A DNA stretch of 64,000 nt from an uncultured delta proteobacterium (lineage in GTDB: Bacteria > Desulfobacterota > RBG-13-43-22). Below are positions 44,546-61,650 of this stretch, piece by piece. The translations under genes and the position numbers were made by a program. Under the pieces are notes generated by a model. The model worked only from the letters and a program-made list of their open reading frames with translations, had not been told where the DNA came from and ran no database searches. The stretch lies in contig CAWDKY010000017.1 of NCBI GenBank assembly GCA_963802945.1, positions 384,001 through 448,000 of the forward strand, read 5' to 3'. Each line of letters opens with the position of its first letter. The first letter of the stretch is position 1.

Positions 44546-46033
44546 CTAAAATTCATAATCCCAAGGCCAGTCCGGCAGATTCTTTAGCTCAGGGTGCTCC
44601 TTCCAGCCAGGGATTCGGGCGATCCTTTTGGCAATGGCCTTATATCTTTTCCAGTCGGCACTGCCAAAAACATGCATCTTTTGGGCGGCCAGAGAGCCCT
44701 CACCGTGAATATGGGCCTGATCGACGTTATGACTGGTCAGGTCCTTGGCCAGTCGAATGGCCTTGAGTCGATCTTCGGTCGATACCCCGGCCTTGCCGGC
44801 CAGATACTTCTCGATAAAAGGTCTTTCCTTGGAATTCATCCAATCTTTGTAGGAAGGGACCGTGGCGATAAGGCCGCCGGTGATATCGGCTAAAAATTTG
44901 GAATTCTCGGCGCACTCATCGGCCTTTCTGAACTTAGCGATGTTGGTATAGACCGTATTGGGGGCGACTAACCCAATATCGGGAAACACATCGGGATGTT
45001 CACAGGCCGCCCTGGCCATGACATCCAGAATCACCGTGTCCATGGCCATCCAGGCCAGTTTCTCCTGGATATGAGGATAGCGGTCTATTCCATTATATTC
45101 GGCCATCAGGGCCGCCGTACCCAGTTTAAGCTCCCGTTCCACGGCTATGGCTGAAGCCCCGTAAAGGCGATGGAAGACGCCGAACAGCCAGGCTTGGTCC
45201 CGGGAAAACTGATATTCGCCGCACATAAACACCCTGTTCCAGGGAACAAAGACATCATCAAAGACAATCAGGCATTCACTGATCTTGGCCCCTTTTCCGC
45301 TGTCAGGCCAATTCCACTGGGCCTCTTCACCTCTTTCCGGATACTTCCCCGGTGAAGTGATCAGGGTAATCCCTTTGGCATTGACCGGGGTGGCAAAGAC
45401 CACGGCATAGTCCTTATCTTCTTCCCGATGGGCCCGGCAAGGAGAAACAATCAGCTCATTGGCATCCGGGGTGGTACTGATGTGCATCTTGGCCCCCCGA
45501 ACCCATATGCCGTCCTTCTGCCGGTCCACAATCCGGACATAGAAGTCCTTATGTTGTTCCTGAGCCGATGGGCGAAGACTCCGGTTCCCCTTGACATCGG
45601 TGATCGCTCCGGTAATGGCCGGGTCGGTCTTTTTCAGATGCTGACGATAGTCCTCTACGGCATCGGTATAGTGGGTGCCTAATTCCCTGTCCATTCTGGC
45701 CGCCACGACTCCGGTGGCCGCCAGGGCATCAGGGCCCATACCGCTCATATTGGCCCCGATTCGATGGGCGGTCATATAAATCTCCCTACGGCGCACAAGA
45801 TCTTCAGCGGTTTTGGGCTGGGTCCAAACGAACATCCTTCTCTCCCCGTCCTCTTCCACGGTGAAGAGGTCCCGCCACTCCGGGTCATTGGCCAGGACAT
45901 AACTCAAGGCCCTGCGGGCAATGGCCCCCTTCATGGCCGGATGTTTGGTTATGTCGGGGATTTGCTCGCCATCGAGAAAAATCACCCTTCCATCATTCAA
46001 ACTTTTAACATACTGCTCCGGTGTTCTAATCAT
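44546..46033 (-). CDS. 4-hydroxybutyryl-CoA dehydratase / HpaB-family flavoprotein (copy 1)
   Basis: TDVKGNRS, GAKMHIS, DYAVVFA, FDDVFVPWNRVF, FHR and HGEGS motifs. Confidence 0.85.
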   Translation of the reverse strand: MIRTPEQYVKSLNDGRVIFLDGEQIPDITKHPAMKGAIARRALSYVLANDPEWRDLFTVEEDGERRMFVWTQPKTAEDLVRRREIYMTAHRIGANMSGMGPDALAATGVVAARMDRELGTHYTDAVEDYRQHLKKTDPAITGAITDVKGNRSLRPSAQEQHKDFYVRIVDRQKDGIWVRGAKMHISTTPDANELIVSPCRAHREEDKDYAVVFATPVNAKGITLITSPGKYPERGEEAQWNWPDSGKGAKISECLIVFDDVFVPWNRVFMCGEYQFSRDQAWLFGVFHRLYGASAIAVERELKLGTAALMAEYNGIDRYPHIQEKLAWMAMDTVILDVMARAACEHPDVFPDIGLVAPNTVYTNIAKFRKADECAENSKFLADITGGLIATVPSYKDWMNSKERPFIEKYLAGKAGVSTEDRLKAIRLAKDLTSHNVDQAHIHGEGSLAAQKMHVFGSADWKRYKAIAKRIARIPGWKEHPELKNLPDWPWDYEF

Positions 46034-46483
46034 AAAAGCCTCCTTTAAATTTAAAGGTAAACATGATCCCCATGAACTTCAAAAGTTTAAAATGTCCTTC
46101 TGCGGTCTAGGGATAGTCTCCCAAGGTTTTAATATTTATTCGACTTTGTTGAGGTTCGATAGGACCCTCGACACTATTATTTATCCTGATCATCCTATTC
46201 CCTTCCCTGCAGTATTTCGATTTGCCATATATTTCCTCCAATTCTTTTATAAGAATTTGATAAGAACTTATTTATTGACGAGAGGAGTATAAAATAAGGA
46301 AAATACACGGTCAAGGAGAAAAAAAGAATAGAAGGCAAGGGGAGAAAAGGAGCCTTTTGAAGAGAATGGGACTTTACAGGCTTAGACTTTGCAACCTGTT
46401 TTAGATTTGGTGTTTTAATCCTCATCATTCCCTGGTATAAGACTCAAAACGGATTTAAAACAAAAAAAGGAGGTTTGAGTAAA

Positions 46484-47266
46484 ATGAAAGTTGCCGATAA
46501 AGTCGTTGTTGTTACGGGCGGGGCCAGCGGCATCGGCAGGGCTTTTTGCCGACGGTTTGCTCAGGAAGGCGCCAAAGGCGTCACTGTGGCTGATATTAAC
46601 GAAAAGGGAGCTATGGCCGTTGCCGATGAAATCAAGGGATTGGCGCTGAAATGTGATGTCAGCAATGAAGATGATATTATAAACGTGGTAAAGCGAACCG
46701 AAGAAAAATACGGTCCTGTTGATCTGTTTTGCTCCAATGCCGGAATATCGGTTAGAGGAGGCCTTGAGCTTCCCAATGATATCTGGCAAAAGATGTGGGA
46801 AGTCCATGTAATGGCCCATGTCTACGCAGCGAGGGCAGTTATTCCCGGAATGATTGAACGGGGCGGCGGCTATCTTCTTAATACGGCCTCTGCCGCGGGC
46901 CTGCTGAATACTATCGCAACCCCTTGCTATGCTGCAACCAAACACGCGGCCGTGGGTTTGGCCGAAAATATCGCCATCATGTACGGCGATCAGGGGATTA
47001 AAGTTTCAGTGGTTTGTCCACAGGCCGTTCGCTCCGGGATGACTCGGGAAGCGGAGAGTGTAGCGGCTGTCGACGGCAGGTTAGAACCGGAAGCGGTCGC
47101 CGATTTGGTGATTGAAGCCTTGGCTGATGAAAGATTTCTGATTCTGCCCCATCCTGAGGTCAAGACCTATTTGGAGCGAAAGACCTCCGACTATGACCGA
47201 TGGCTTACCGGTATGCGCCGACTCCGGTCTCGATACCTCCAAGGAGAGTCTTTAAAGTCCAAATGA
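46484..47266 (+). CDS. SDR family oxidoreductase
   Basis: TGGASGIG, SNAG and YAATK motifs. Confidence 0.93.
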   Translation: MKVADKVVVVTGGASGIGRAFCRRFAQEGAKGVTVADINEKGAMAVADEIKGLALKCDVSNEDDIINVVKRTEEKYGPVDLFCSNAGISVRGGLELPNDIWQKMWEVHVMAHVYAARAVIPGMIERGGGYLLNTASAAGLLNTIATPCYAATKHAAVGLAENIAIMYGDQGIKVSVVCPQAVRSGMTREAESVAAVDGRLEPEAVADLVIEALADERFLILPHPEVKTYLERKTSDYDRWLTGMRRLRSRYLQGESLKSK

Positions 47267-47351
47267 TCCATTAGGATAGGCGCCGGCCCTCCCTTATAAA
47301 GTCCAATGAAAACAGGTAGACAATAAACTTAGAAAAAAGAAAGGAGCACCC

Positions 47352-48155
47352 ATGGAATACAAAACCGTTATTGTAAGTAAGAAGGAGCATATTGCCACCA
47401 TTACTTTGAATCGTCCGGAGAAATTGAATGCTTTGAATCCTCAACTGGTACAAGACTTTCGTAAAGCCGTCATCGAAGTGGATGATGACGATGACGTAAG
47501 AGCCATCATTATTACCGGAGCCGGTCGGGCTTTCAGCGCCGGGATGGACTACAAAGAAGATTTTCAAGCTGGGATCGATAAGAGAAAAGAAAAAGGTGTT
47601 GACCCATCAAGGAGGTTTTTAGGAATAGGGAAAGGTTTGTATCCTCTGGAGAAGGTGAGGGCGCCGGTGATCGTAGCCTTGAATGGTTATGCCATGGGCG
47701 CCGGATTTACCGCAATCGCTTTACGAGGTGATATCAGGATTGCTTCGGAAGAAGTTAAAATACAGCTTACATTTTCGCGAATCGGGTTGATGATAGAAGC
47801 CGGATCAACTTATCTATTGCCCCGCTTAATAGGTATGGGAAAGGCTTGCGAATTAGCCTTTACTGCCAGAACAATTGATGCCAAAGAGGCCTTAGAACTG
47901 CGCCTGGTAGATAAAGTAGTCCCGGCCGACGAATTGATGAAAACAACCTGGGAAATGGCCAAGGCGATTGCCTTGGTATCACCCATGTCAAATCGACTTG
48001 CCAAGCGAGCGCTATATCTGGGACTGAAAAGTGATATGGACACCGCCGAACACTTCGAAGAAATCGGACAAAGCTTTCTCGGATCTACTGCAGACTATGA
48101 AGAAGCGGTCAAGGCCTTTCTGGAAAAGAGGCCGCCCGAATTTAAGAACAGATAA
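47352..48155 (+). CDS. Enoyl-CoA hydratase/isomerase family protein
   Basis: LNRPEKLNA, AFSAGMD, NGYAMGAG and AFLEKRPP motifs. Confidence 0.93.
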   Translation: MEYKTVIVSKKEHIATITLNRPEKLNALNPQLVQDFRKAVIEVDDDDDVRAIIITGAGRAFSAGMDYKEDFQAGIDKRKEKGVDPSRRFLGIGKGLYPLEKVRAPVIVALNGYAMGAGFTAIALRGDIRIASEEVKIQLTFSRIGLMIEAGSTYLLPRLIGMGKACELAFTARTIDAKEALELRLVDKVVPADELMKTTWEMAKAIALVSPMSNRLAKRALYLGLKSDMDTAEHFEEIGQSFLGSTADYEEAVKAFLEKRPPEFKNR

Positions 48156-48344
48156 TAAACAGGTTCGGAAACCGGTTTACAGAAGCGTCCGCCACAGGTG
48201 CGGTAATTCTTGGAACAGATTGGGCGGGCTTACTGCGAAAATCATTCGAGTCGAGTAGGCCGGTTTCTCCCCATACGGTAAACTAAAATTGGTCCTTGTT
48301 AGCCGGTTAGTTTCCCCGACGGCGGCACAATCAGTCAGCCAATA

Positions 48345-48731
48345 TCATTTTTTCTCGGCGAGTTGAACCAACACACCATGGGCGGATTTGGGGTGCACAA
48401 AAACCTGAGGGCTGCCTACACCAATGAGTTGTACACCGGCATCCTGCATGGTTTTTACCGTTGCCGCCAGGTCATCGACCGCCAGAGAGATGGTGTGAAC
48501 TCCTTCTCCACTTCTTTCGATCGCTTTACCCACGGCTGAATTAGGACCAAAAGGGGCCACGACTTCTAAAAACCCCCCATTAGGGAAGGGGAAAAAGGCC
48601 TGCTTGATACCCAAAGCTTCGGACTCCGAGGTGCGCTCCAGTTTCATTCCCAATTTATCCCTAAAGGTGCTTATGCCTTCCTCAATATTTTTCACACGCA
48701 CAACCATATGATCTATTCCTTTAATCGCCAT
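48345..48731 (-). CDS. VOC family protein (methylmalonyl-CoA epimerase-like)
   Basis: IDHMVV, LEVVAP, GEGVHTI and FVHPKSAHGVLVQL motifs; RBS AAAGGAG before ATG 48731. Confidence 0.85.
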   Translation of the reverse strand: MAIKGIDHMVVRVKNIEEGISTFRDKLGMKLERTSESEALGIKQAFFPFPNGGFLEVVAPFGPNSAVGKAIERSGEGVHTISLAVDDLAATVKTMQDAGVQLIGVGSPQVFVHPKSAHGVLVQLAEKK

Positions 48732-49063
48732 TTTTTCTCCTTTCTCAATAAAATTAAGTATGAACAGTTTTATCTCGGGTAATAATCGATTGCCAATTCC
48801 TTTCTTCTCCGCTTGGGGAGATGCCTTAGATTGGCTGGCGGCCCTGACCTCTCCTCTACCCAACCAGAAGAAACCAATGATCCGATACCATGGCCCTATA
48901 ATACCGTTTCTCGGGAGATTCGTCAAAAAGAAAATCAACTTGACCATATCCTTTTCCTTGTTTTATACTCTTCCATCAAAAAGGAAATACCCGAGAAGAA
49001 AGTTATTAAGAAATTTCATAAAATGACTCAGGGAATGAATATCTAATTATTATGAGAGAATGA

Positions 49064-50002
49064 TTGATGGGAATTTTTCACTGTCCTTTTGGCTGCCCTT
49101 ATTACGAAGATGAAGGGTGTATAGATTGTGGCCTGTGCCTGGCCACTACCAGCGAAGAGATGGTTGAGGCTTCAAAGAAAATTCGAGCCTATCTAAAGGC
49201 CCATGCCCAGCAGGGAAGGCCAATACAAAAGATCGCTGTTTGCGGCAAAGGCGGGGTGGGTAAAAGCACCGTTGTGACCCTAATGGCCAAGGCCCTGGTC
49301 GGCCTGAATTATAACGTGCTGGTCTTGGATACGGATGAATCCAATCCGGGCCTATACCGGTCCCTGGGTTTTGATAAAACACCTAAACCTCTCTACTCCT
49401 TGATGAGCCGTTTCTCCTATAAGGGACAGCCGGAAGAGGATACCCAGTGGATCATGCTGCCTGAAATAAAAATAACGGATATTCCGCCGACCTATATCCC
49501 TGCACAAAACGGTTTAAAGTTTCTGATGGTGGGCAAGATTGAAGACCCTTTTCAGGGCTGTGCCTGCTCCCTGGCTGATGTCACCAGGGGATTTGTTTCC
49601 AGGTTATCCCTGATGGAAAATGAAATCATCCTGATTGATATGGAAGCCGGGGTCGAGAGCTTCGGCCGGGGTGTGGAAAGAAGTGTCGATCTGGTCTTAT
49701 CCATCGTTGAGCCCTCTTTTGAATCCATGGCCCTGGCGGAAAAAATTGTCTATATGGCCGAGGGCATGGGAATAAACCGAGCAGGTGCCCTGCTGAACAA
49801 AGTTCCCTCTGAAGCTATCAAAGAAAAAATGATCAAGGAACTTGAAAAAAGAAATGTTCAGACCCTGGGAACCATTCATTTTGACCAAAAGGTGCAGGAG
49901 GCGGGATTTGAAGGGAGGCCGCCGACTCATTCCAAAGCCGATGAGGAGGTTGAAAAAATAACACAAGTATTAATCAACGTTGTCCAACAAACAACTAATT
50001 AG
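49064..50002 (+). CDS. CooC/AcsF-like P-loop ATPase with extra Cys-rich N-terminus
   Basis: GKGGVGKST, GCAC and DMEAG motifs; N-terminal HCPFGCPYYEDEGCIDCGLC. Confidence 0.85.
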   Translation: MMGIFHCPFGCPYYEDEGCIDCGLCLATTSEEMVEASKKIRAYLKAHAQQGRPIQKIAVCGKGGVGKSTVVTLMAKALVGLNYNVLVLDTDESNPGLYRSLGFDKTPKPLYSLMSRFSYKGQPEEDTQWIMLPEIKITDIPPTYIPAQNGLKFLMVGKIEDPFQGCACSLADVTRGFVSRLSLMENEIILIDMEAGVESFGRGVERSVDLVLSIVEPSFESMALAEKIVYMAEGMGINRAGALLNKVPSEAIKEKMIKELEKRNVQTLGTIHFDQKVQEAGFEGRPPTHSKADEEVEKITQVLINVVQQTTN

Positions 50003-50069
50003 TTTCCATCCGGAAATCTTATTTTCGGATGGAAACTATTTCATCTCAATTGAAGGAGGGACCGAGAAC

Positions 50070-51155
50070 ATGACGGTTGAAGATTCCTATCAAATTTTAA
50101 TGAACAATTTAAAGTATCCCGCTTCCAATCGCCTGCGGGCCTTATTGGAATATTTATTAACCCCTGAACAGGCCCAAATGGCCGCTGCCCTTCCTGGAAC
50201 AGCGGCTGAAGTGGCGGAGAAAACAGGATTTGATCTGGAGGTGGTCAAGAAAGAACTGGATGCCCTTTTCTATGCCGGGGTCATTTTTCCCAAGGGCGAT
50301 TTTAATGACCGGCAATATTACCGCTTCGCCCGTTCCGTCGGGCAACTTCATGATGCCAGCCAGGCGCCTAAAGGGATCGATGTGGTCAAGGACCGCGAAT
50401 ATTTCCGGTTATGGCACGATTTCGTCATGAATGAATGGTATCCGGACCGGGGAAGGGCCTTTGCCGAGTCCCCGCAGCCTTTTGCCCGGATCATCCCGGC
50501 TTATAAGGCCATTAAAGACCTGCCGGACGTTCTACCCTGTGAAGATGTCCGCGAAATCTTTAAAGCCCAGAGACGCATCGCGGTCGTGCCCTGCTCCTGC
50601 AGGTATCGCACTACCTCTGTGGGCGAACACTGCGCCCATACGGCCGAAGAGGATGTCTGGCACTGTCTCCAATTCAACCGCGGGGCCGACTATGCCATGG
50701 CCAGAGAAGCCGGAAAAGAATTGAGTCTGGATGAAGCCTTAGCGCTTCTGGATAAAGTGGAAGAAGACGGACTCCTTCATACCTGGCAGAACAATGCCGC
50801 GCTGACCGGTATGGCGGTCGCTTGTCAGTGCTGCCGGGATTGCTGCATGAACGCGGTTCCCATGGATATCATCAAAGAACCCTTGGATAAGATGTGGGCC
50901 AAAAGCCGCTTCATAGCCACCGTGGATGAAAAGGCCTGTATCGGCTGCCAGACCTGTGTGGATCGATGCCAGTTCGACGCCATTGAAATGGTTAAAGCGG
51001 AAGGGGTTACCAAATCAAAAAAACTAAAAGCCAAAGTTGATCCCGAAGCCTGCTTCGGGTGCGGGGTTTGTGTGGTGGGCTGCGATAAAGCCCAGGCCTT
51101 GTCCATGAAGCTGGTTCGGCCACCGGACCATATTCCGCCAGTCAAGGAAGCTTAA
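50070..51155 (+). CDS. Cys-rich 4Fe-4S dicluster domain protein
   Basis: CSCR and CQCCRDCC; C-terminal CIGCQTCVDRCQ and CFGCGVCVVGC ferredoxin motifs. Confidence 0.85.
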   Translation: MTVEDSYQILMNNLKYPASNRLRALLEYLLTPEQAQMAAALPGTAAEVAEKTGFDLEVVKKELDALFYAGVIFPKGDFNDRQYYRFARSVGQLHDASQAPKGIDVVKDREYFRLWHDFVMNEWYPDRGRAFAESPQPFARIIPAYKAIKDLPDVLPCEDVREIFKAQRRIAVVPCSCRYRTTSVGEHCAHTAEEDVWHCLQFNRGADYAMAREAGKELSLDEALALLDKVEEDGLLHTWQNNAALTGMAVACQCCRDCCMNAVPMDIIKEPLDKMWAKSRFIATVDEKACIGCQTCVDRCQFDAIEMVKAEGVTKSKKLKAKVDPEACFGCGVCVVGCDKAQALSMKLVRPPDHIPPVKEA

Positions 51156-51157
51156 GA

Positions 51158-51250
51158 AAGGTATAAGGTACAAGGTGTAAGGTTTAAAGAAAATCGTACA
51201 CCTTGTACCTGTTGTCTTTTGAGCTACTAAATCCTTGAATCCTCGAACCC
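51158..51250. repeat. Heptamer and octamer tandem arrays
   Basis: AAGGTAT AAGGTAC AAGGTGT AAGGTTT ... ACACCTT GTACCTG; ATCCTTGA ATCCTCGA. Confidence 0.75.
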
Positions 51251-51260
51251 TGTTTTCGTA

Positions 51261-51320
51261 CTAAAAGTCGTAATCCCAGGGCCAGTCCGGGCGATTCTTT
51301 GACCGATGATGTCCCTCATG
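51261..51320 (-). pseudogene. Relic 3' end of a third AbfD/HpaB-like gene
   Basis: Translates ...KNRPDWPWDYDF*, versus KNLPDWPWDYEF* at the end of 44546-46033. Confidence 0.75.
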
Positions 51321-51330
51321 CGGTCTTTTT

Positions 51331-52599
51331 CTATTCCAGTGTTTCATGCACCTTCCACATGTCTTCGTCTGTGAAACAACGCTCGCTCTCATCCGGGTGC
51401 ATGGCATCTTGTTCAAGTCTGCGCCGGTCGTATGAGGCGTTCAACACCTCGTCATAGTATTCGTGTTGAATGAGCAGGTTCATGATCTGGCTGGTGCCGG
51501 TCCAGATCATGGACAATCGAGTGTCCCTTAAAGCCCGTTCAATAGGATAGACATCCGTATAACCTATGCCGCCCATGATCTGCATGGCGTTATTGACCAC
51601 CTGCCAAGCCGCTTCGGTCGCAAACCGCTTGGCTTCGCTGACTAAGCGGCGTACATTAGGGCTGTTCTCATCTGCCGCCCTGGCGGCAAAATAGGACAGG
51701 GCCCGGGCCGCATCCAGTTGGGTGATCGAGTCGGCCACTAAAAAGTTGATGGCCTGAAACCGTCGTATCTCCTGGCCAAAGGCCTTGCGCCGATTGGAGT
51801 ATCTCAAGGCCAGGTCTAATGCCCCCCACACGCCCAGGCAACCGGCCGCCGAGGTCAAACGCTCGGGGATCATCATCTGATTAAAACACAAGGCACCGCC
51901 ATGGAGTTCTCCGACCAGGTTCTCTTTGGGAACACGGACATTGCGAAACACCAGCCGGCCGGTCCCACCGCCTTTGCATCCCAAGAGACCATAGAGATAT
52001 TCGGTCTTAACCCCAGGCCCTTTTTCGATGATCATCAGGCTGATTCTGGAGTAGCGATTAGCACCGGGTTCGAAATTGGTCCGGCAATAGACCAGAAAAA
52101 AATCGGCACCTTCCGCCCCGACCACAAAACGTTTCTGTCCATTGACAATAAAATGATCTCCTTCAAGATCAGCTCTGGTGGTGGCCCCAAAAAAGTCAGA
52201 ACCGCCTCTGGGTTCGGTCAGGGCCTCGGCCGCGATGAGTTTCCCTTCGAGATAGGGTTTGAGGTATTTTTCTTTCAGCTTTTCCGTGCCGAAACGATTC
52301 AGGGCTTCGCCCACAATGGACGGCATCACAAAGGCACAACCCAGGGCCATGCCCAGGCAGCCGATTTCCTCGGTAGCCGCTATTTCCGCCACCCAGCTCA
52401 TTTCCCGGCCGCCGTATATTTTGGGGAACCGTAGGCCGCGAAGATTGAGGGCGGCCAGCTTTTCCACAAATTCTCTCGGATAGGTAATCTCGTCCTTGTC
52501 CATCTTTCTGAGAAAATCGCTGGTGATCTCTTCACGAACGAACCTCTTAACTTCGTCTCTTAATGCCCTTTCTTCAGACGTCAGTAAAAAATCGTACAT
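51331..52599 (-). CDS. Acyl-CoA dehydrogenase family protein
   Basis: LTEPRGGSD, NGQKRF, RKAFGQ, QIMGGIGY and IWTGTSQI motifs. Confidence 0.93.
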   Translation of the reverse strand: MYDFLLTSEERALRDEVKRFVREEITSDFLRKMDKDEITYPREFVEKLAALNLRGLRFPKIYGGREMSWVAEIAATEEIGCLGMALGCAFVMPSIVGEALNRFGTEKLKEKYLKPYLEGKLIAAEALTEPRGGSDFFGATTRADLEGDHFIVNGQKRFVVGAEGADFFLVYCRTNFEPGANRYSRISLMIIEKGPGVKTEYLYGLLGCKGGGTGRLVFRNVRVPKENLVGELHGGALCFNQMMIPERLTSAAGCLGVWGALDLALRYSNRRKAFGQEIRRFQAINFLVADSITQLDAARALSYFAARAADENSPNVRRLVSEAKRFATEAAWQVVNNAMQIMGGIGYTDVYPIERALRDTRLSMIWTGTSQIMNLLIQHEYYDEVLNASYDRRRLEQDAMHPDESERCFTDEDMWKVHETLE

Positions 52600-52860
52600 A
52601 ACAGCCTCCTTTGGCCAATACGAAAACAATGGCGATGGTTCTATTTTTCTTTCTTTTTGTCAATAATTAAACCGTCCCCATTTCTATTTCTTCTATTCCC
52701 CAAACATCGGACATTTTCTTTTCAACGGTCTGGCTCTTATCAGGTCTTTATCAATAAAGTAATAAAAGGGCCAAGAGAAGACTTGACCCCTTTACTATAC
52801 ACAGGATGTCCTTCTTTTCTCAAGAATATGTACAATTAAGATGAGACTCCACTATCGCAG

Positions 52861-52990
52861 TTGTCTGTCAAAGAACTTTGGGTTAAAATTCATTCCCTGG
52901 CTACGGCCAGGTAGCCTCTGAGAACCGCCCGGTGCGGACCCGCATGCCGGGTGGTGTGGGGAGGGGGAGAGAACTCCCCCTTTACCCGAC
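52861..52990 (+). mobile_element. 3' remnant of a class C (attC-targeting type) group II intron: end of IEP plus domains V-VI
   Basis: LSVKELWVKIHSLATAR*, then GAACCGCCCGGTGCGGACCCGCATGCCGGGTGGTGTGG (short DV, CGC triad) and DVI ending CCCGAC, abutting TAGCTG. Confidence 0.85.
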
Positions 52991-53688
52991 TAGCTGCTTA
53001 ACTTCCAGGCCGCCTCCGGATATGAAAGATAATAGACATTATTGAAACCACGGTTATCACATTTAATATCATCCCCTAAGCGAGCTTTGCCTGAGTTGAA
53101 TATTCTGTCACTCACAAGGAGCAGCCTTACGTCCGATATATTCTTTGCATACTTTGGAAGGTTCTTTGCTTTTCCATTTATGGCTCTATCAACAAGGTCT
53201 TTATCAATATTACTCACCCAGCCGACTTTGTTAGATACGTAATTCCACCTTTTGTATTCCCCTAACTGATCCGGAAGTCTCCGAACATAAATTACACAAC
53301 CGTTATAGGGCTCGATCCGCTTTTGTTCAAACTCTGATAGTTGCGGTACCTCCTTTGTGATCGCGTTCAATAGTTTATCGTGATGACCGATATCACCCAA
53401 TAAATCGGCTTTGATGGAGGAGCAATTTGCCTTGTAATAAGCATCGGCCAATTTTTTGATGTTTTTCAGGTTATTCTTTTCATCAGCTTTTTTTGTAGAT
53501 CCCCTGCTTGACTCGTCGAGATATATTTCTCTGACCTCTAACCCAAATTTCTCCAATTCTGTTGTCACGATCAGGTCAGGCCAACTGACTTCATCAGGAG
53601 AAGGCTCAACTTTCCACGACTCAACAAGCAATTCACCTGTTTTCTTGGCATAAATTAATTCAAGACTTTTCTGATGTTGCGTGGTCAT
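52990..53688 (-). CDS. Hypothetical protein with a PD-(D/E)xK-like motif, probable gene cassette
   Basis: WPDLIV...FGLEVRE; AT-rich; begins after GGTAGCTG and ends in the complementary CAGCTA. Confidence 0.65.
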   Translation of the reverse strand: MTTQHQKSLELIYAKKTGELLVESWKVEPSPDEVSWPDLIVTTELEKFGLEVREIYLDESSRGSTKKADEKNNLKNIKKLADAYYKANCSSIKADLLGDIGHHDKLLNAITKEVPQLSEFEQKRIEPYNGCVIYVRRLPDQLGEYKRWNYVSNKVGWVSNIDKDLVDRAINGKAKNLPKYAKNISDVRLLLVSDRIFNSGKARLGDDIKCDNRGFNNVYYLSYPEAAWKLSS

Positions 53689-53699
53689 GATCTCTCTTG

Positions 53700-53757
53700 C
53701 AGCTACCGCCATAAGTCTGACCGGCCGCTTTGGGGCCAATCCTGGCGCTTGTTGACC
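53700..53757 (-). mobile_element. Degenerate attC-like site
   Basis: Minus strand GGTCAAC-AAGCG...GATTGGCC-CCAAAGC-GGCCGGTC...GGTAGCT; GC-rich hairpin in an AT-rich context; box spacing irregular. Confidence 0.45.
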
Positions 53758-53845
53758 CTTTTTCCCATTCGTTGGGAAGCACAAGGGTCGTGTGCCATTA
53801 TTTGCGAGGTTCAGAGAGCAATTAGTTTTTCTTTTTGATGTTGTA

Positions 53846-54478
53846 TTATTGCCTTCTTTTAACGTTTTTCAACCTTAACTCTTTCCTCTCTTGAAACATT
53901 TTTTCTAATTTTGCTTTTTGTTCGGGTGATGCATCAAGAATTTTCTTGCGCCATTCCATATCATATTCTAAATCCATTTTTGCATTTAACAACATTAGTT
54001 TAAGAAATCCAGTTATTCCATTGTGCCCATTTTTTTTTACTTTTTCATCATAAACTTTATTTAAGTCATTTTTAATTCTAGATAGTTCAATTGCTTTTTC
54101 AAGGTCTGCGACTTGACCCTCATAATCTAAAACAGCACCTTTTGAAACTGAACGAGTAAAATAATTATTGCAATCTTTTGGAGATAACTGAATTGCTTTA
54201 TCAAAATCCTCTATTGCATCATAGTGATATTTTAATCCTTGTAAGCATGATGCACGCATGCCATACAAATCTGCAATATCGTGATTAAAATATTTTTCAA
54301 ATTTATTTTCAAGAGCTAAATCAAAATACGTCAATGCATCACATGGCTGTCTTTTAAGCCAGAGTTGTTTTCCCTTTTCAAAATAGTTAAGTCCATCCCA
54401 TTTGATCTTAGATTCAAAATCATCAGATTTAGAATTATCTTAATTTTTTCTTTTGAATATCCTTGTGAACCAACTCAT
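53846..54478 (-). pseudogene. Tetratricopeptide-repeat protein with premature TAA at codon 13
   Basis: RBS GGAGG, ATG 54478 in frame with ORF 53846-54334; TPR-like AIEDFDKAIQLSP and ADLEKAIEL. Confidence 0.65.
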
Positions 54479-54548
54479 ATTTTAAATCCTCCCCTTCCTA
54501 TCGCTGCTATCTGAGGTCAAACTCGCCTTTAGATTGGAAATTAGTGGA

Positions 54549-54570
54549 AATTAGGGACACATCCCTAATT
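54549..54570. repeat. REP-like perfect hairpin
   Basis: AATTAGGGA-CACA-TCCCTAATT, preceded by a GGAAATTAG tandem. Confidence 0.5.
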
Positions 54571-54637
54571 CTGATCGTTCACTGAGCAATAAAATTTAGG
54601 TAAAAGTATAACTACTACAGGGTTTATTGTAAGTTTC

Positions 54638-55183
54638 CTATTTCCCCTTTATCAGATCTCGCAGGTTAGGGGGGAGCTGAGCTGTGAGTTCGGGAAACGC
54701 TTCGATGATTCTCAAAATATCGGCCAAGTCTTTTTGCCGTTTGCTTCTTCTGCGGGTTTCATCGGTGTAGGCCCACACTTTTCCCTGCAACACATTTTCC
54801 AGGGTGGCCACTTTCAAATCATAACCAAGTATATTGCGAACCATTGCATTGGTAAGAAAACCCTGATAACGGATATCGGTCTGAACTTGAATTCGCAAGT
54901 CCGAACCGGGTCCGCTGATGTTGATACTGTGTTCAAACCGTTCCACCGTCAACTGGTGGCTTTTGGAGGCATTGATAACGGCCTCGATATCATCAACAGC
55001 TACCACAATATCAATATCCAAACTCACCACGGGTTCCACATAAGCATTGACAGCCAGCCCCCCAATCAGGGAGTAACGAGAACCAGTTTCCCTGAGGATG
55101 GAAAGGAACTGCTGGAGGATGTCTGATTTCCCCTTAGCGATAGAATTCAGGAATTCTTTGCTTGTCATTGCTCCCTCACTCAT
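54638..55183 (-). CDS. Nucleotidyltransferase-fold protein (AbiEii/DUF6036-like)
   Basis: LIGGLAV...SLDIDIVV (GG plus DxD) and C-terminal K..A...R.K...D pattern. Confidence 0.7.
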   Translation of the reverse strand: MSEGAMTSKEFLNSIAKGKSDILQQFLSILRETGSRYSLIGGLAVNAYVEPVVSLDIDIVVAVDDIEAVINASKSHQLTVERFEHSINISGPGSDLRIQVQTDIRYQGFLTNAMVRNILGYDLKVATLENVLQGKVWAYTDETRRRSKRQKDLADILRIIEAFPELTAQLPPNLRDLIKGK

Positions 55184-55353
55184 TCAAAATAGTTAACTCA
55201 TTATAAATCATAAATAATTTCTTGACAATTTTTTTTAATTGTCTTTATTTTGTCTTTCAGACAGTCTGCAGCCTATTTGATTTCCATGTCTTTTAAGGGA
55301 GCCTGGGGAGAGAGGAATTATATTAATTCAGGTAAAAACCGGATAAAAGGTTA

Positions 55354-55397
55354 CGATAATATGAGTTGACACGCTCATATTATCGCGATAAAATGAG
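55354..55397 (+). promoter_or_regulatory. Promoter with a triple 12-bp operator upstream of the AAA/DUF4143 gene
   Basis: CGATAATATGAG-TTGACACG-CTCATATTATCG-CGATAAAATGAG; TTGACA-N17-TAAAAT; ATG 7 nt after the -10 box. Confidence 0.75.
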
Positions 55398-55400
55398 CCC

Positions 55401-56669
55401 ATGAAAACCAATGATTATGTCCCTCGCAGCCTCGAAAACTATGCCTTTGATGAAAGCTTGACCGGAAGACACATGGTTTTTTTGGCCGGGGCGCGGCAGG
55501 TGGGAAAGACCATGCTGGCCCGCCATTGGCTGGAAAAGAAAGGCAGCTCCTCTCTTTATTTTAACTGGGACGATATTAAAACCCGCCAAACTTACCTGTC
55601 TGACAGCCGGTTTTTTGAGTCCCCGGCCCGAGCACTGGGCCTTGCCGATCCCTGGATTGTGTTTGACGAAATCCACAAACGCAACCATTGGCGGGATATT
55701 CTTAAAGGGGCCTATGACCTTTTCTCAAAAGAATTCAGATTCCTGATAACCGGAAGCGCCCGACTGGATTTGTTTCGAAGATCCGGGGACTCCCTGGTCG
55801 GCCGGTACAATCTGTTTCATATGTTTCCTTTTACCCTTAAAGAGGTTACCTCTTTGAGGAAATCTTCCTGTTTTTTAGAAGAAGATAATTTTGGATCTAT
55901 GGTTTCAGTTTTCGAAAAACAGGTCTCCTCACGATTATCTCCTGAAATCGATGAGGCTTACAATATCCTCTGGAGAAACGGCCCCTTTCCCGAGCCCTTT
56001 TTAAAGCAAAACGATCGGTTCAGCCGTAAATGGCACCAGGATTACATGAGTCTGGTCGTTCGTCAGGATTTGAAGGATTTAACCAGGGTAGCAGAACTAG
56101 ATAAGATCGAGCACCTGATTTCCCTTCTTCCGTCCCGTGTCATGTCCCCCATTTCCATGGCCAACCTATCCCGTGAACTGGAGGTGGCCCATACTACGGT
56201 AAAAAACTGGCTGGAACAATTGAAGAGGCTTTATCTTTTATTTTCGGTAGATCCTTGGACCCAAAAGATTTCTCGTGGTTTGAAAAGAGAAAAAAAATGG
56301 TATTTTCTGGATTGGTATTATGTCCCGGCAGGGGCGGCCCGCCTGGAAAATATAATAGCCGCCAATCTCTACCAGGTCTGTCAAACCCTTACCGACAGAG
56401 GGCTTGGCTTATATCGGCTTTATTATATAAGGACTTTGGACAAAAAAGAGATCGACTTCCTGGTGACGGTGGGCCGAAAACCAGTCCTTTGTGTGGAGGT
56501 TAAAACCGGAGAGTCCAAAATTTCCAATACGCTCATCAATCGTCAAAGATGGTTCCCCAACCAACCCACGCTGGGGGTTCAGGTTGTGGAAAAAGGGGGG
56601 ACCCTTAAAAGGCTTCAGGGAGATACCTGGATCATCGGTATCGATCGATTTTTATCACTACTGGATTAA
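55401..56669 (+). CDS. AAA_14 ATPase with DUF4143 / C-terminal PD-(D/E)xK-like domain
   Basis: GARQVGKT, FDEIH, TGS, GPFPE, KWYFLD and EIDF...VEVK motifs. Confidence 0.88.
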   Translation: MKTNDYVPRSLENYAFDESLTGRHMVFLAGARQVGKTMLARHWLEKKGSSSLYFNWDDIKTRQTYLSDSRFFESPARALGLADPWIVFDEIHKRNHWRDILKGAYDLFSKEFRFLITGSARLDLFRRSGDSLVGRYNLFHMFPFTLKEVTSLRKSSCFLEEDNFGSMVSVFEKQVSSRLSPEIDEAYNILWRNGPFPEPFLKQNDRFSRKWHQDYMSLVVRQDLKDLTRVAELDKIEHLISLLPSRVMSPISMANLSRELEVAHTTVKNWLEQLKRLYLLFSVDPWTQKISRGLKREKKWYFLDWYYVPAGAARLENIIAANLYQVCQTLTDRGLGLYRLYYIRTLDKKEIDFLVTVGRKPVLCVEVKTGESKISNTLINRQRWFPNQPTLGVQVVEKGGTLKRLQGDTWIIGIDRFLSLLD

Positions 56670-56777
56670 AAAGTATTTCACTTCAAGGTCCTATAAAAAA
56701 GACAAAACTCAATTTTTTCGTCCCTGTTCAGGGTAACCTTTAACAGATTTAAGAATTTAAGAAAGGAGCTTAATCAA

Positions 56778-57599
56778 ATGGACCAGGTTACGAAAAATGT
56801 TTTTGTGGAAACCGGCTATCGGGGCTGTAATCCCGGTTTTGTGGTCACTTCGGAAGGGGTGGTGATGGTCGATACCCCGCAGATCCCGAGAGATGCCCTG
56901 GCCTATAGGGAGATCGTTTTAAAGCACGGCAAACCGATTTATCTGATCAATACCGAACCTCACGGCGATCATTATACGGGTAACTTCTTTTTTGAGGCAA
57001 TTTGTGTGGCCCAGGAAGGGACCAGGGAAGTAATGATGCAAGCCCAGCTCCCGGCGTTTAAAGAAAGGATGAAATTACTGGACCCCGGTTTTGATCAACT
57101 GGAAACCTATCGGATCAAATTTCCCTCCATTACCTTCGGCCAATCGATGTGGCTGTATGTGGGTAATCATACCTTTGAATTGATACACCTGCCGGGCCAC
57201 ACGGCCAGTGAAACGGTGGTCTTTATTCCAGAGGAACGAACGGTTTTCACCGGAGACAACATCTTTAACCGGGTCCAGACGTTTCTTCATGAGGCCTTAC
57301 CCAAGGAGTGGCTTGAATCTTTGGAGGTTCTTAAAAAACTGGAGGCCGATTATTATATCCCCGGACACGGGGAGGTTTGCACCAAGGCCTATCTGTACGA
57401 ACAGGCCTCTTTCATCAAGGAATGGATTGCTTCTATCCATGAAGCGATCAAGCGAGGATGGTCCTTGGAAGAGGCCCAGCAGCGCATCTCTTTTCTGGAC
57501 CGCTATCCCATGGGACAAGGGTTGGAGGCCTTTGGGCCGGAATTGCAGAAAATGAACGTGGCCCGACTTTATGCCTTGGCAGGGGAGGGGAGGATTTAA
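56778..57599 (+). CDS. MBL-fold metallo-hydrolase (cyclase-like)
   Basis: VDTP, NTEPHGDHYTGN, PGHT, FTGD and PGHG motifs. Confidence 0.85.
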   Translation: MDQVTKNVFVETGYRGCNPGFVVTSEGVVMVDTPQIPRDALAYREIVLKHGKPIYLINTEPHGDHYTGNFFFEAICVAQEGTREVMMQAQLPAFKERMKLLDPGFDQLETYRIKFPSITFGQSMWLYVGNHTFELIHLPGHTASETVVFIPEERTVFTGDNIFNRVQTFLHEALPKEWLESLEVLKKLEADYYIPGHGEVCTKAYLYEQASFIKEWIASIHEAIKRGWSLEEAQQRISFLDRYPMGQGLEAFGPELQKMNVARLYALAGEGRI

Positions 57600-57752
57600 T
57601 TAAAAGGAAGTTTGGAGCTCAGAGTTCGGAGTTTAGCGTTCAGATCGCTCGGCTTTGCCGAGCTTTAAGAAAGGCTTCCAGTGGAAGCCGGAGTTCGGCG
57701 AAACCGGTTTCAAATTTTCTTGATGCCTTCTAGGGTATGAAGATTAAGGTAA

Positions 57753-57787
57753 AAAAGAAAGGGCGGGGTTGACCCGCCCTTTCTTTT
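57753..57787. terminator. Bidirectional intrinsic terminator
   Basis: AAAAGAAAGGGCGGG-GTTGA-CCCGCCCTTTCTTTT between convergent genes. Confidence 0.85.
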
Positions 57788-57813
57788 AGAAAATCTTATC
57801 TCAGGCCTTATGC

Positions 57814-59262
57814 CTATTTTACAGCCTTAAGTAAGGAATCAGGCATTGTCCAAGGTGGCGTAATCGGTTGCTGATAATCGGGATGATCCGTGGGAATGCC
57901 AAGATTACGCCTGGCAGCGGCCTTAAATCTTTCCCAATCGGCCATCTGATAGACCACCATCCTCTGGGTGGCCAGGGATCCTTCGGCGTGAATCGTCAGG
58001 ACGCCGCCGAAGGTGGAGCCCAGTTGAATAACGGCGTTTATGGCCTTGATCCGGTCTTCAGCCGGGAACCTGGCGTCGCCCTGGAGATATTTATCCATAT
58101 AGGCCTTCACGGTGGGGTTCTGATAATCCTTCTGGGAAGGCATTGTGGCGGCGATCCCGCCGGTTATATCCTGAACATACTTCATGGCTTCATGCCATTG
58201 GGAAGCAAACCAGTACTTGGCGCAGTTGGTATAAACCGGATTCGGTAAAGCGAATTTCGTCTCCGGATCGATAACCGGCGCCAGGGCAGCGGCTTTTCCC
58301 AGGGCCTCGGTTACATCGGCATACATGGCCAGCCAGGCCAGCATATCCTGAATACGGGTAGCATGCGTCAATCCATTATATTCGGCCATTATCATGGCCA
58401 AGCCGGCAACAAACTGCAGTTGCACGTGTTTATAGGTGGCGGCGGTGAGACGATGATAACGGGCGAAAGAGGTGGCATACACCCTCGAGAATTGCCATTC
58501 GCCGCAGAGAAATACCCTTTCCCAGGGGACAAAGACGTTATCGAAAATGATCATGGGATGGCCGCCGTTTGTTGTCCCGGCAGAGGCCAGGAAGCTTACG
58601 CCCTTGGCTCCGCAAGGAACAGCACAGGAAACGGCATAATCTTTCCCTGCTTCATTGTGATTACGGGAGGGAACTAAAATCAATTCATTAGAAAGAATCG
58701 AGTCGCTGATGTGCAGTTTACAACCGACGATGGTTATTCCTTCCTTGTTTTTGTCTACTACACGGACGTAGAAGTCTTTATGGGCCTGCTTCGGGTCTTC
58801 GGCATGCAGTCTCCTGTTGCCTTTGGGGTCGCTGACCGCAGCGCACAGGCCCGGATCGTTTTTCTTGCACCAAGCCCGGTAAGATTTCATGTTTTCGGAA
58901 TAATGGGTACCCATAGCCGCATCCAGCCTTTCACAGGCATAGGCCACGCCATTCAAACTGTCGATACCCGTAAGACGGGAACCACCGATGCGGTTACGAC
59001 TTAGGGTCTGAACAATCGTTCTTCGCCTTTGGAGGTCCTCGCCCGTTTTGGGCACATTAAATGAGAAGGAAACTTCCTCACCATCTTCCATCATATTGAA
59101 CAGGGAACGATACTCGGGCTGGGTAGAAATCCAGAACTCGGAAGCGGAGCGCTCCACCGCCTCTTTGTATCGGGTCGGCACATCTTTTATCAGTTCGCCG
59201 TCCTGATACACGACCCTTCCGTCTCTTAAACTTTGAACATACTGTTCCGGTGTCTTAACCAT
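57814..59262 (-). CDS. 4-hydroxybutyryl-CoA dehydratase / HpaB-family flavoprotein (copy 2)
   Basis: SDPKGNR, GCKLHIS, DYAVS, FDNVFVPWERVF, YHR and HAEGS motifs. Confidence 0.85.
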   Translation of the reverse strand: MVKTPEQYVQSLRDGRVVYQDGELIKDVPTRYKEAVERSASEFWISTQPEYRSLFNMMEDGEEVSFSFNVPKTGEDLQRRRTIVQTLSRNRIGGSRLTGIDSLNGVAYACERLDAAMGTHYSENMKSYRAWCKKNDPGLCAAVSDPKGNRRLHAEDPKQAHKDFYVRVVDKNKEGITIVGCKLHISDSILSNELILVPSRNHNEAGKDYAVSCAVPCGAKGVSFLASAGTTNGGHPMIIFDNVFVPWERVFLCGEWQFSRVYATSFARYHRLTAATYKHVQLQFVAGLAMIMAEYNGLTHATRIQDMLAWLAMYADVTEALGKAAALAPVIDPETKFALPNPVYTNCAKYWFASQWHEAMKYVQDITGGIAATMPSQKDYQNPTVKAYMDKYLQGDARFPAEDRIKAINAVIQLGSTFGGVLTIHAEGSLATQRMVVYQMADWERFKAAARRNLGIPTDHPDYQQPITPPWTMPDSLLKAVK

Positions 59263-59467: not shown

Positions 59468-59926
59468 TTATATATCTTCCCTCAAGCTGCATCCCAGTTT
59501 CTTAGCCAAGCGCGCCAAATCTTCTTGCTCTTGCTCTGTAAGAACAGAAGCCATTTCAGTAAGATACTCGGCATGCTTCACAAAGGAATCATCGAATATC
59601 TTTTTCCCTTTTGGAGTGAATCGAACAACAATGGCCCGCCGATCGTCATTACTGGGAATACGTTCCACCAGGCCTTCTTTTTCCAGATTGTCCACAACGA
59701 CCGTCATATTCCCGCCGCTCACCAGCATTTTTTTACACAGCTCTCCCATGTTCAAGGGACCAAGGTGTCCCAAGCATTCAATAACTGCATATTGGGCGGC
59801 CGTGATTCCAAAATTTTTTAAATGTTCGGCATTTTTTTTATTGAAGCTGGCGTAGGCCCTCTGCAGTTTCACCCACATGCCGAGGGCCCTGTCGATTTTT
59901 TTTCCGTATTTAACTGTATTTTTCAT
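59468..59926 (-). CDS. MarR family transcriptional regulator (MhqR-like)
   Basis: LVSGGNMTVVVDNLEKEGLVER...DRR...TPKG winged HTH. Confidence 0.92.
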   Translation of the reverse strand: MKNTVKYGKKIDRALGMWVKLQRAYASFNKKNAEHLKNFGITAAQYAVIECLGHLGPLNMGELCKKMLVSGGNMTVVVDNLEKEGLVERIPSNDDRRAIVVRFTPKGKKIFDDSFVKHAEYLTEMASVLTEQEQEDLARLAKKLGCSLREDI

Positions 59927-60867: not shown

Positions 60868-61650
60868 TTACTCCAGGGAACCGGCTGTCCCGACCATGGA
60901 TCCGCCGTCTATGACAATGGTTATCCCGGTCACGTATCTTGAGGCGTCTGAGGCCAAATAAAGCACAGCACCGGCTACGTCATCCGGCTGCCCCAAGAAA
61001 TCCAAGGGCATACGTTGGAGGGCAGCGGCTCCAACGGCCGGGTCTTTCCACAAGGCCTCGCTGAGACGGGTCTCGATCACACCCGGGGCAATGGCATTGA
61101 CCCGGATACCATACTGACCCCATTCCCTGGCCATGCATTGGGTCAACATGATCAAGCCGGCCTTGGTAACGCAGTAAATACTTAATCCACTGGCCCTAAG
61201 CCCGGCGACCGAGGCCGTGTTGATAATATTACCTCCACCTTTCCCCTTCATGACTTTGGCCACCATCTGAGCCAGAAAGAACTGCCCCTTTAAATTGACA
61301 TTCATGGTTGTGTCCCAGGCCCACTCCTCCGCTTCCAAAAGGGTTCCCGGATAGGGGTTGGTGCCGGCGTTGTTGAATAAAATATCAATACGACCGAATT
61401 CTTTGACCACTTGGACGACCAATTTTTTCTGATCTTCAAGCTTGGCTACGTGGGCGGCAATGGCCACGCCCTTTCTATTTTTGGCTTTGATCTCATCGGC
61501 CACTATATCCAGATCAGCCTGCTTCCGGCTGCTGACAACGACATCAGCACCCGCATCAGCAAAGGCCAGGGCACAGGCCCTGCCGATGCCGCGGCTACCA
61601 CCGGTGATAAGGGCCACCTTGCCCTCTAATGAAAACCTCTTGCTGTCCAT
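60868..61650 (-). CDS. SDR family oxidoreductase (DHRS4-like)
   Basis: TGGSRGIG, NNAGTNP and YCVTK motifs. Confidence 0.93.
   Translation of the reverse strand: MDSKRFSLEGKVALITGGSRGIGRACALAFADAGADVVVSSRKQADLDIVADEIKAKNRKGVAIAAHVAKLEDQKKLVVQVVKEFGRIDILFNNAGTNPYPGTLLEAEEWAWDTTMNVNLKGQFFLAQMVAKVMKGKGGGNIINTASVAGLRASGLSIYCVTKAGLIMLTQCMAREWGQYGIRVNAIAPGVIETRLSEALWKDPAVGAAALQRMPLDFLGQPDDVAGAVLYLASDASRYVTGITIVIDGGSMVGTAGSLE

Follow-up and report, generated by a model that had tools for sequence, protein, structure and literature searches.

4-Hydroxybutyryl-CoA dehydratase (AbfD) is the textbook flavin/[4Fe-4S] radical dehydratase. A 64,000-nucleotide stretch of DNA from an uncultured delta proteobacterium (contig CAWDKY010000017.1, positions 384,001 to 448,000; hereafter the window) encodes two AbfD-like flavoproteins, copy 1 (P0001) and copy 2 (P0002), that lack the cysteine ligands of the cluster, and the question raised by this locus is what reaction such proteins could catalyze. 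Sequence comparisons indicate that the two copies belong to a distinct, uncharacterized branch on the AbfD side of the HpaB/AbfD flavoprotein family, called here the EGS clade. Since the iron-sulfur site has been lost and a glutamate has been gained at the likely position of the catalytic base of acyl-CoA dehydrogenases (ACADs), a different chemistry on CoA esters is suggested. We give roughly even chances to the proposal that both copies are cluster-free flavin adenine dinucleotide (FAD) enzymes that act on acyl-CoA esters using Glu445 (copy 1 numbering), and perhaps His288, as the base.

Family Membership and Cluster Ligand Sites

Both genes are intact open reading frames (ORFs; Table 1), and their products are 42% identical over the full length, with strong Pfam matches to HpaB_N and HpaB. 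The Pfam, PDB, and fold matches indicate that both copies possess the HpaB_N + HpaB, ACAD-like fold with framework motifs of the AbfD type. The best solved relatives of both copies in HMMER searches of the PDB are the 4-hydroxybutyryl-CoA dehydratases 1u8v and 6vjr (copy 1: 4.1e-58 and 1.2e-56; copy 2: 2.7e-46 and 1.8e-44), and Thermus HpaB is matched at 7.3e-52 by copy 1 and 3.8e-31 by copy 2. The bit scores to 1u8v are 200 (copy 1) and 161 (copy 2). No structure in the PDB is nearer than ~30% identity to either copy, and no NCBIfam model scores above its cut-off for either one.

The ligands of the AbfD cluster are C99, C103, C299, and H292, and the residues T190, E257, Y296, and E455 are reported to be important for dehydratase activity, according to a preprint on the Nitrosopumilus enzyme (10.1101/2020.02.05.935528). 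When the copies are aligned to 1u8v with HMMER, C99 and C103 are replaced by A94 and G98 in copy 1, while in copy 2 C99 falls in a gap and C103 is replaced by Leu. H292 is kept in both copies, and C299 is replaced by Ser in copy 1 and by Tyr in copy 2. These alignments indicate that the [4Fe-4S] site has been lost in both copies, with His alone remaining. In these two copies the His is kept and the three Cys are gone, as the original prediction stated, but the loss of all three Cys does not extend to the whole clade, in which close relatives of copy 1 keep one or two of them. At the positions of T190, E257, Y296, and E455, copy 1 has S, E, Y, and A, and copy 2 has S, H (or P, given a one-residue ambiguity in the alignment), A/T, and L.

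The motifs expected of the flavin fold (GAxTDxKGxR, GAKxH[IQ][ST], and DIxGG), which are shared with AbfD, are intact in both copies as predicted, and the His-Arg pair, Ser186, and the flavin-framework motifs are retained in the clade. All of the motifs quoted in the original prediction were recovered from both ORFs, including the two said to be common to both copies, H(G/A)EGSLA and KDFYVR. The values of dN/dS lie between 0.043 and 0.096 overall in nine pairwise comparisons (copy 1, 0.045-0.096; copy 2, 0.043-0.069), and both genes are under strong purifying selection. Because of this selection, and because the same changes recur in dozens of orthologs (those of copy 2 are 50-99% identical), the substitutions at the ligand sites are not due to chance.

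Phylogeny and Paralogs

The main tree contains 89 rows and was obtained from an IQ-TREE quick search under LG+G4. It includes the paralogs from the same genome, a sample of proteins related to both copies in the databases, AbfD-type proteins from named genomes, and seven references of the HpaB-1 type; of these seven, four score above the TIGR02309 cut-off. Three groups are found: the HpaB-1 group (7 rows, SH-aLRT 100), the canonical AbfD-type group (34 rows, SH-aLRT 99), and the EGS clade (48 rows, SH-aLRT 92, or 99 when the long row from contig C28 is left out). In a second tree of 75 rows, rooted with six ACADs from the same genome as outgroup, the EGS clade (28 rows) and the canonical group have support of 95 and 99, respectively, and the root lies between HpaB-1 and the EGS and canonical groups together, a provisional placement as long branches meet there. 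The EGS rows fall outside the clade of cluster-bearing 1u8v relatives in both trees.

The groups also differ at the ligand columns. All three ligand Cys are present in each of the 34 canonical rows, while a Cys is found at the C99 column in none of the 48 EGS rows and at the C103 column in five. The C299-equivalent Cys is kept in 68% of the 28 rows of the copy-1 subclade, and the H292 column contains His in 47 of 48 EGS rows. The column of AbfD A460 is occupied by Glu in 47 EGS rows and by Asp in the remaining one, whereas the other 41 rows of the tree have A, G, or L at this position. The original prediction proposed a distinct subfamily that is neither a canonical AbfD nor an HpaB monooxygenase, to be checked by alignment and phylogeny with both. 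The outcome agrees with this proposal, as the ligands are absent, the copies lie on a branch of their own outside the canonical clade, and their scores are below the TIGR02309 cut-off. A divergent group inside the canonical clade (loci L067-L073, from Ignavibacteriales, the FCB group, Thermoplasmatota, and Bacillota) keeps the three Cys and has the ligand His292 replaced by Tyr, together with a G-T-C-T-G-G-R-C motif and the sequence H-G-G-G-S-P.

The genome itself, a 4.37-Mb assembly of 72 contigs with contamination given as 6.72%, contains 13 ORFs of this family, 12 of full length, plus one short fragment. An alignment of these paralogs reveals a graded series. The CxxxC and H...C pattern is present in six of the 13, two have only the second and third ligand Cys, two (69-70% identical to copy 1) have only the third, and three have no ligand Cys at all (copy 1, copy 2, and one on contig C28). 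The paralog on contig C33, which adjoins a thiolase, is a true AbfD ortholog (756 bits and 1.3e-226 to 1u8v). The seven Cys-poor paralogs share the motif H-x-E-G-S-[LM]-A-x-Q, and the remaining paralogs have H-G-[AG]-G-S-P at that site. Consequently, the two proteins of the original prediction are both real, but its scope was too narrow, as seven of the 13 paralogs carry H-x-E-G-S. Because the relic Cys sit at exactly homologous positions, the series suggests a stepwise loss of the cluster from a cluster-bearing ancestor.

Position of the Conserved Glutamate

The catalytic Glu of the ACADs, E376 in medium-chain acyl-CoA dehydrogenase (MCAD), is located at the start of the last helix. Structural alignments of the full copy 1 model with ACAD structures all end at model residue 434-436; in that with MCAD 3mdd the last aligned positions are model residue 434 and chain residue 367, and E376 lies nine residues further on. 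A second model was made of residues 270-495 alone (AlphaFold2 (AF2), 82-row alignment, pLDDT 87), and the ACAD alignments of this C-terminal domain extend to the C-terminus of the ACAD chains. Fragment residues 11-196 align with chain residues 247-396 of MCAD 1ege and residues 12-197 with 248-396 of MCAD 1t9g, and the results for 8sgp and 8sgs are similar. Assuming an ungapped last helix, fragment residue 176, which is Glu445, falls on E376 within one residue in either direction. The same model aligned with 1u8v (1-206 on 274-490) places Glu445 on A460, in agreement with the sequence alignment. Furthermore, a local hhalign comparison of the clade profile (residues 380-495) with the ACAD C-terminus pairs EGSLAAQKMHV with EGNNQVQRNII (score 14.3, E 0.035; 9.4 for the alternative). 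The models suggest that the clade Glu is likely to lie at, or within about one residue of, the ACAD catalytic base. Neither copy matches the Pfam Acyl-CoA_dh_N/M/1 domains at E<=0.001.

Two near-identical 420-aa ACAD-like ORFs elsewhere in the genome (C64:7755-9017 and C16:307011-308273) have the sequence S-I-H-A-A-G-S-P-E near the C-terminus, which resembles the H-G-A-G-S-P loop of AbfD.

Gene Neighborhoods

The features of the window that are discussed here are listed in Table 1. Copy 1 is convergent with a phosphoenolpyruvate carboxykinase gene and divergent from a pair of genes for a short-chain dehydrogenase/reductase (SDR) and a hydratase, and it is probably monocistronic. Beyond the SDR-hydratase pair are genes for a VOC/glyoxalase-fold protein, a MinD-like/ferredoxin-domain pair, and an ACAD family protein. 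Copy 2 is the last gene of a minus-strand row in the order ligase, SDR, SDR, MarR, copy 2, and the closest loci, L116, L117, and L118 (88-94% identity), have the same arrangement, with one or two SDR genes.

Table 1. Positions within the window of copies 1 and 2, their diagnostic motifs, and neighboring genes.
Feature	Position	Strand	Remarks
Copy 1 (P0001), 495-aa EGS-clade AbfD-like flavoprotein	44546..46033	(-)	intact ORF
Copy 1 HGEGSLA, residues 443-449	44687..44707	(-)	Glu445 at AbfD Ala460 position
Copy 1 FHRLYGASA, residues 287-295	45149..45175	(-)	His288 (=H292) and Tyr291 (=Y296) kept; C299->Ser
Copy 1 GANMSGMGPD, residues 93-102	45728..45757	(-)	in place of AbfD CxxxC ligand helix
SDR, divergent from copy 1	46475..47266	(+)	Pfam adh_short 2.2e-44
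Enoyl-CoA hydratase/isomerase (crotonase family)	47352..48155	(+)	Pfam ECH_1 3.8e-52
ACAD family protein, 5 kb from copy 1	51331..52629	(-)	Pfam Acyl-CoA_dh_N/M/1; all NCBIfam models below cut-off
Copy 2 (P0002), 482-aa EGS-clade protein	57814..59262	(-)	intact ORF
Copy 2 HAEGSLA	57970..57990	(-)	near-invariant clade Glu (Glu427)
Copy 2 YHRLTAATYK	58429..58458	(-)	His kept, C299->Tyr, K300 kept
Copy 2 GGSRLTGID	58960..58986	(-)	in place of CxxxC
MarR-family regulator, directly upstream of copy 2	59468..59926	(-)	Pfam MarR 2.1e-16
SDR	59941..60738	(-)	Pfam adh_short_C2 (pair: 5.7e-63 and 1.2e-62)
SDR	60868..61668	(-)	Pfam adh_short_C2 (pair: 5.7e-63 and 1.2e-62)
AMP-forming acyl-CoA ligase	61809..63542	(-)	Pfam AMP-binding 1.2e-62; NF004837 482.2 bits, cut-off 476

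The neighborhoods of the other EGS genes are more varied. The remaining EGS paralogs of the genome adjoin genes for a 3-hydroxyacyl-CoA dehydrogenase and a hydratase, CoA transferases, and split AMP ligases, and two of them adjoin a glycyl radical enzyme of the PFL2/glycerol-dehydratase family and its activase. Among 25 loci of copy-1-type relatives, an SDR cluster is found in eight, an AMP-ligase cluster in seven, and a glycyl radical enzyme with activase in five. The other loci with copy 2 orthologs (of 37) have as neighbor an ADP-forming acyl-CoA synthetase (six), another AMP ligase (four), or a TetR regulator (six). A census of the 149 proteins encoded within two genes of an EGS gene at 47 other loci counted, among CoA-activating families, AMP-binding (9), Succ_CoA_lig/CoA_binding, the ADP-forming acyl-CoA synthetase (6), and CoA_transf_3 (4), and otherwise TetR (7), SDR (5), HGD-D, the D component of 2-hydroxyacyl-CoA dehydratase (4), and OYE (3). 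CoA-ester metabolism is the sole common thread of the EGS neighborhoods, but it is a loose one.

Several further features of these regions were recorded. The ACAD family protein near copy 1 has I-W-T-G-T where typical ACADs of the same genome have I-Y-E-G-T, and so is without Glu at the usual catalytic position. The MinD-like/ferredoxin-domain pair (49064-51155, plus strand) starts with a MinD/CbiA-type P-loop protein. The second protein, of 391 aa, carries a 2x[4Fe-4S] ferredoxin domain at its C-terminus and has no other family match, and its homologs occur near the EGS paralog at C17:51559 and in locus L013. The glycyl radical enzymes of the genome (C34:92694-96105, corresponding to L076:694-4105, and C32:132585-138271, corresponding to L078:6585-12271) are 800 and 815 aa long and score below every NCBIfam equivalog cut-off, with 1r8w as the best PDB match (1.2e-124). 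The pairing of a glycyl radical enzyme with an EGS gene is also seen in loci L022, L026, and L029. Several genes of the genome, for two AMP-binding ligases, one enoyl-CoA hydratase, and one flavin reductase, are each broken into two frames that overlap (L078:7622-9437; L077:17403-18365 with L078:3325-4128; L079:11467-12538; C28:48844-49318), reflecting either assembly frameshift errors or real pseudogenes. The metabolic genes of the window are interspersed with genes of mobile or defense type at 36527-38436 and 54638-56669, which encode two rve-integrase transposases, an AbiEii-like nucleotidyltransferase, and an AAA_14/DUF4143 ATPase. Three segments of the window (16-18 kb, 34-36 kb, and 38-42 kb) have a lowered G+C content of 0.39-0.43.

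Proposed Chemistry and Alternatives

In the chemistry considered here, an acyl-CoA supplied by an adjacent CoA ligase, synthetase, or transferase would bind over the FAD, and the side chain of Glu445, possibly together with His288, would take the C2 proton. One cluster-independent option from this point would be an ACAD-like alpha,beta-dehydrogenation or the reverse reduction. Alternatively, the enzymes could catalyze a delta3-to-delta2 double-bond shift or the gamma-elimination of a good leaving group. AbfD has a second activity, of the vinylacetyl-CoA isomerase type, that is a delta3-to-delta2 double-bond shift. Radical dehydration of a 4-hydroxyacyl-CoA and O2-dependent hydroxylation of a phenol are not expected, and the substrates probably differ between copy 1 and copy 2. 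The acyl-CoA redox or isomerase role put forward in the original prediction fits both the gene neighborhoods and the Glu at the likely ACAD base position.

A number of observations weigh against this proposal. E455 of AbfD is lost in both copies, Y296 and E257 are also lost in copy 2, and each subclade has its own conserved Cys elsewhere in the protein. The local hhalign result that favors the equivalence of the Glu is weak (E 0.035 for one comparison). The full-length hhalign comparison sets the ACAD Y-E-G loop on copy 1 residues ~414-416, and its match stops short of the EGS motif (443-451), at residue 429 in the first run and at 439 in a low-mact rerun. The block that bears the Glu has a pLDDT of 57 in the domain-only AF2 model, and the equivalence is derived from the first and last aligned residues together with the assumption of an ungapped helix. 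In addition, the genomic context is heterogeneous, with CoA-activating proteins making up just 19 of the 149 neighbors, and the gene order of copy 2 is kept in just three of 37 related metagenome loci (>=6 kb). No gene for an electron transfer flavoprotein (ETF) lies beside any EGS paralog, and the eight ETF-domain matches are elsewhere in the genome.

The conserved Cys also bear on whether an Fe-S or other metal center has been rebuilt from different ligands, so that the copies would still catalyze an AbfD-like Lewis-acid/radical dehydration, which we consider improbable. Candidate ligands would be His288 with C199, C254, and C344 in copy 1, which has five Cys, and C132, C140, C181, C213, C217, and C347 in copy 2, which has eight. 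The near-invariance of the ligand His is consistent with such a center, as is the retention of Cys in the copy-1 subclade at positions 199 (86%), 254 (89%), 271 (100%), and 344 (96%) and, less often, at the C299 equivalent; C254 is next to E253, the counterpart of the AbfD active-site residue E257. Likewise, in the copy-2 subclade (19 rows) Cys is retained at 68-84% in six columns, two of which form a CxxxC at 213-217. However, the Cys of the copy-2 subclade and most of those of the copy-1 subclade are not invariant, as single rows have A, V, S, or T instead, and all six are missing from the three basal copy-2-type rows. C271 is also Cys in 88% of the canonical rows and is outside the four ligands named in the preprint (10.1101/2020.02.05.935528). 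Copy 1 and its 91% ortholog lack both the relic C299-equivalent Cys and the His that follows it, which are kept in most rows of the subclade, and no set of three to four Cys is common to copies 1 and 2. Alternative Cys ligands in the site had been named at the outset as a finding that would refute the original prediction, and here the result is mixed: Cys conserved within a subclade do exist, yet they are replaced in single rows and basal members are without them, a pattern that argues against an obligatory cluster, although a metal site may still be present.

That the copies are instead the HpaB-like oxygenase of a two-component monooxygenase, acting on an aromatic or other substrate under micro-oxic conditions with reduced flavin from a separate reductase, is improbable. 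The Pfam names HpaB_N and HpaB would suit such a function, as would the location of the C28 paralog between a PF01613 flavin reductase and a nitroreductase and the six PF01613 matches in the genome. All six are outside the window, in which the PF01613 search found none, as the original prediction had stated for HpaC-type reductases; the reductase gene beside the C28 paralog is split over two frames, and the contig of the C28 ortholog has no PF01613 match in any of five congeners. Both copies score far below the HpaB-1 and HpaB-2 cut-offs (TIGR02309, cut-off 480.2: 182.6 bits for copy 1 and 122 bits for copy 2; TIGR02310, cut-off 885.2: 108.6 and 84.9 bits), and none of the 13 family matches in the genome passes an NCBIfam HpaB equivalog cut-off. 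The motif GR[ST]PD[YFH] is present in all seven HpaB-1-type rows and ATH in the five of five rows printed. GR[ST]PDY and ATH, whose Arg, Tyr, and His bind the phenol substrate in HpaB, are absent from the EGS rows, which have the AbfD-type motifs instead. The trees join the EGS clade with canonical AbfD and away from HpaB-1, and oxygen-sensitive glycyl radical enzymes and their activase near EGS genes in five of 25 loci point to an anaerobic setting. A non-catalytic role, be it that of a pseudoenzyme, of a regulator, or of a partner subunit in hetero-oligomers with a cluster-bearing paralog, is highly improbable, even though both copies have lost residues important in AbfD (the Cys ligands and E455, to which copy 2 adds Y296 and E257) and many paralogs occur in a single genome. 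The dN/dS of ~0.05 and the orthologs found across Thermodesulfobacteriota and Chloroflexota metagenome-assembled genomes (MAGs) argue otherwise, and the near-invariant new Glu, together with the retained His-Arg, Ser186, and flavin-framework motifs, points to an active site. The partner-subunit idea, one of those raised in the original prediction, finds no support: neither copy was seen in a conserved pair with another paralog, the evolution of both genes resembles that of enzymes, and no EGS gene lies directly beside a cluster-bearing paralog in this genome or the loci examined.

If the copies are indeed cluster-free enzymes of acyl-CoA esters, a broader proposal, which we regard as rather unlikely, is that the EGS clade arose from a cluster-bearing AbfD-like ancestor by stepwise loss of the [4Fe-4S] cluster and restoration of a carboxylate at the ACAD base position, and that it is a new class of cluster-free flavoenzymes whose reaction is new for this fold. 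With unusual acyl-CoA esters as substrates, the candidate reactions would be a dehydrogenation (beta,gamma- or alpha,beta-), the migration of a double bond, or a gamma-elimination. The EGS enzymes of some lineages may be wired to pathways of glycyl radical enzymes, in anaerobic degradation in peat and sediments.

Distribution and Naming

A profile of the EGS clade separates the EGS copies of the genome (at least 610 bits) from its canonical copies (no more than 419 bits). EGS-level matches are present in 12 of the 13 other genomes scanned within the genus and in three of seven from other genera in the family, and 20 genomes that represent 20 further families of the phylum have none. Among named relatives, a peat MAG of the Thermodesulfobacteriota is the nearest, with a copy 1 that is 97% identical, and relatives at 67-91% identity are found in Dehalococcoidia/Chloroflexota and 'Deltaproteobacteria' MAGs. 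Proteins that are 91% identical to copy 1, with dS ~1.0, are encoded at L014, L015, and L103 in Chloroflexia/Dehalococcoidia MAGs; these Chloroflexota-binned genes reflect either inter-phylum gene transfer or mis-binning, and MAG G042 has at least five family members. No match to window positions 57814-63542 was found in RNA datasets, and the DNA shares are <=0.14 in peat, soil, and sediment runs.

A library at 50% identity contains 205 representatives of the superfamily at E<=1e-30, and 106 full-length proteins among the best 150 were examined. The canonical ligand pattern is present in 52 of these, EGS[LM] in 14, and another Glu at that site in six; five are HpaB-like, and the rest are other Cys-less forms. 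Because just 52 of the 106 (among the best 150 of 205) have the canonical pattern, cluster-free AbfD look-alikes are common. No characterized member was found in NCBIfam, the PDB, source names, or the ESM Atlas. The ESM Atlas has only automatically named 4-hydroxybutyryl-CoA dehydratase clusters, and the source names are automatic only; this database name is probably wrong for copies 1 and 2. A full-text search found no paper on Cys-less AbfD homologs; the 347-sequence phylogeny of 4-hydroxybutyryl-CoA dehydratases in the preprint may include some (10.1101/2020.02.05.935528). The portions seen of PMC13101534, PMC8364193, PMC13495136, and PMC12583861 are without relevance to the EGS clade.

The naming may have practical consequences, as cluster-free look-alikes could inflate counts of 4-hydroxybutyryl-CoA dehydratase in metagenome work. 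This enzyme is used in metagenome studies of wetlands and sediments that deal with dark CO2 fixation. A large cluster-free sister branch, together with intermediates that keep one or two ligands, provides a natural series on what the AbfD cluster is needed for and on how radical enzymes may be converted to ordinary acid-base flavoenzymes, and the Glu at the likely ACAD base position offers a concrete mechanistic hypothesis. The expansion of the family in one peat Thermodesulfobacteriota genus and its presence in Dehalococcoidia MAGs may point to unrecognized steps in anaerobic carbon turnover.

Comparison with AbfD, HpaB, and Acyl-CoA Dehydrogenases

The EGS proteins are most similar to AbfD, with which they share length, domain order, the GAxTDxKGxR, GAKxH, DIxGG, and H-R motifs, the ligand His292, a hydroxyl side chain (Ser) at the position of T190, and a CoA-ester gene context, in addition to being joined with the canonical group against HpaB-1 in the trees. 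In contrast to AbfD, the two copies are without the three Cys ligands and E455, and copy 2 also lacks Y296 and E257; Ala460 is replaced by the near-invariant Glu, and the proteins form a separate clade. Moreover, the genome has a separate true AbfD, which scores 756 bits to 1u8v as compared with 200 and 161 bits for the copies. The differences from HpaB (TIGR02309/TIGR02310; Thermus 2yyg and E. coli 6qyi) are larger, as the EGS proteins are far below the cut-offs, lack the GR[ST]PDY/ATH motifs, have no conserved reductase partner, and lie on the far side of the tree. Similar to the ACADs (MCAD 3mdd/1ege/1t9g, short-chain acyl-CoA dehydrogenase, and glutaryl-CoA dehydrogenase 3mpi), the EGS proteins have a Glu that precedes G-[ST]-x-x-x-Q-[KR] where the helix aligned with the last ACAD helix begins, an equivalence seen at the level of aligned ranges, and their genes lie in an acyl-CoA context. 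Unlike the ACADs, to which they are 8-22% identical, they have no Pfam ACAD domain, are ~100 residues longer, including a C-terminal arm, and carry the AbfD-type His288-Arg289.

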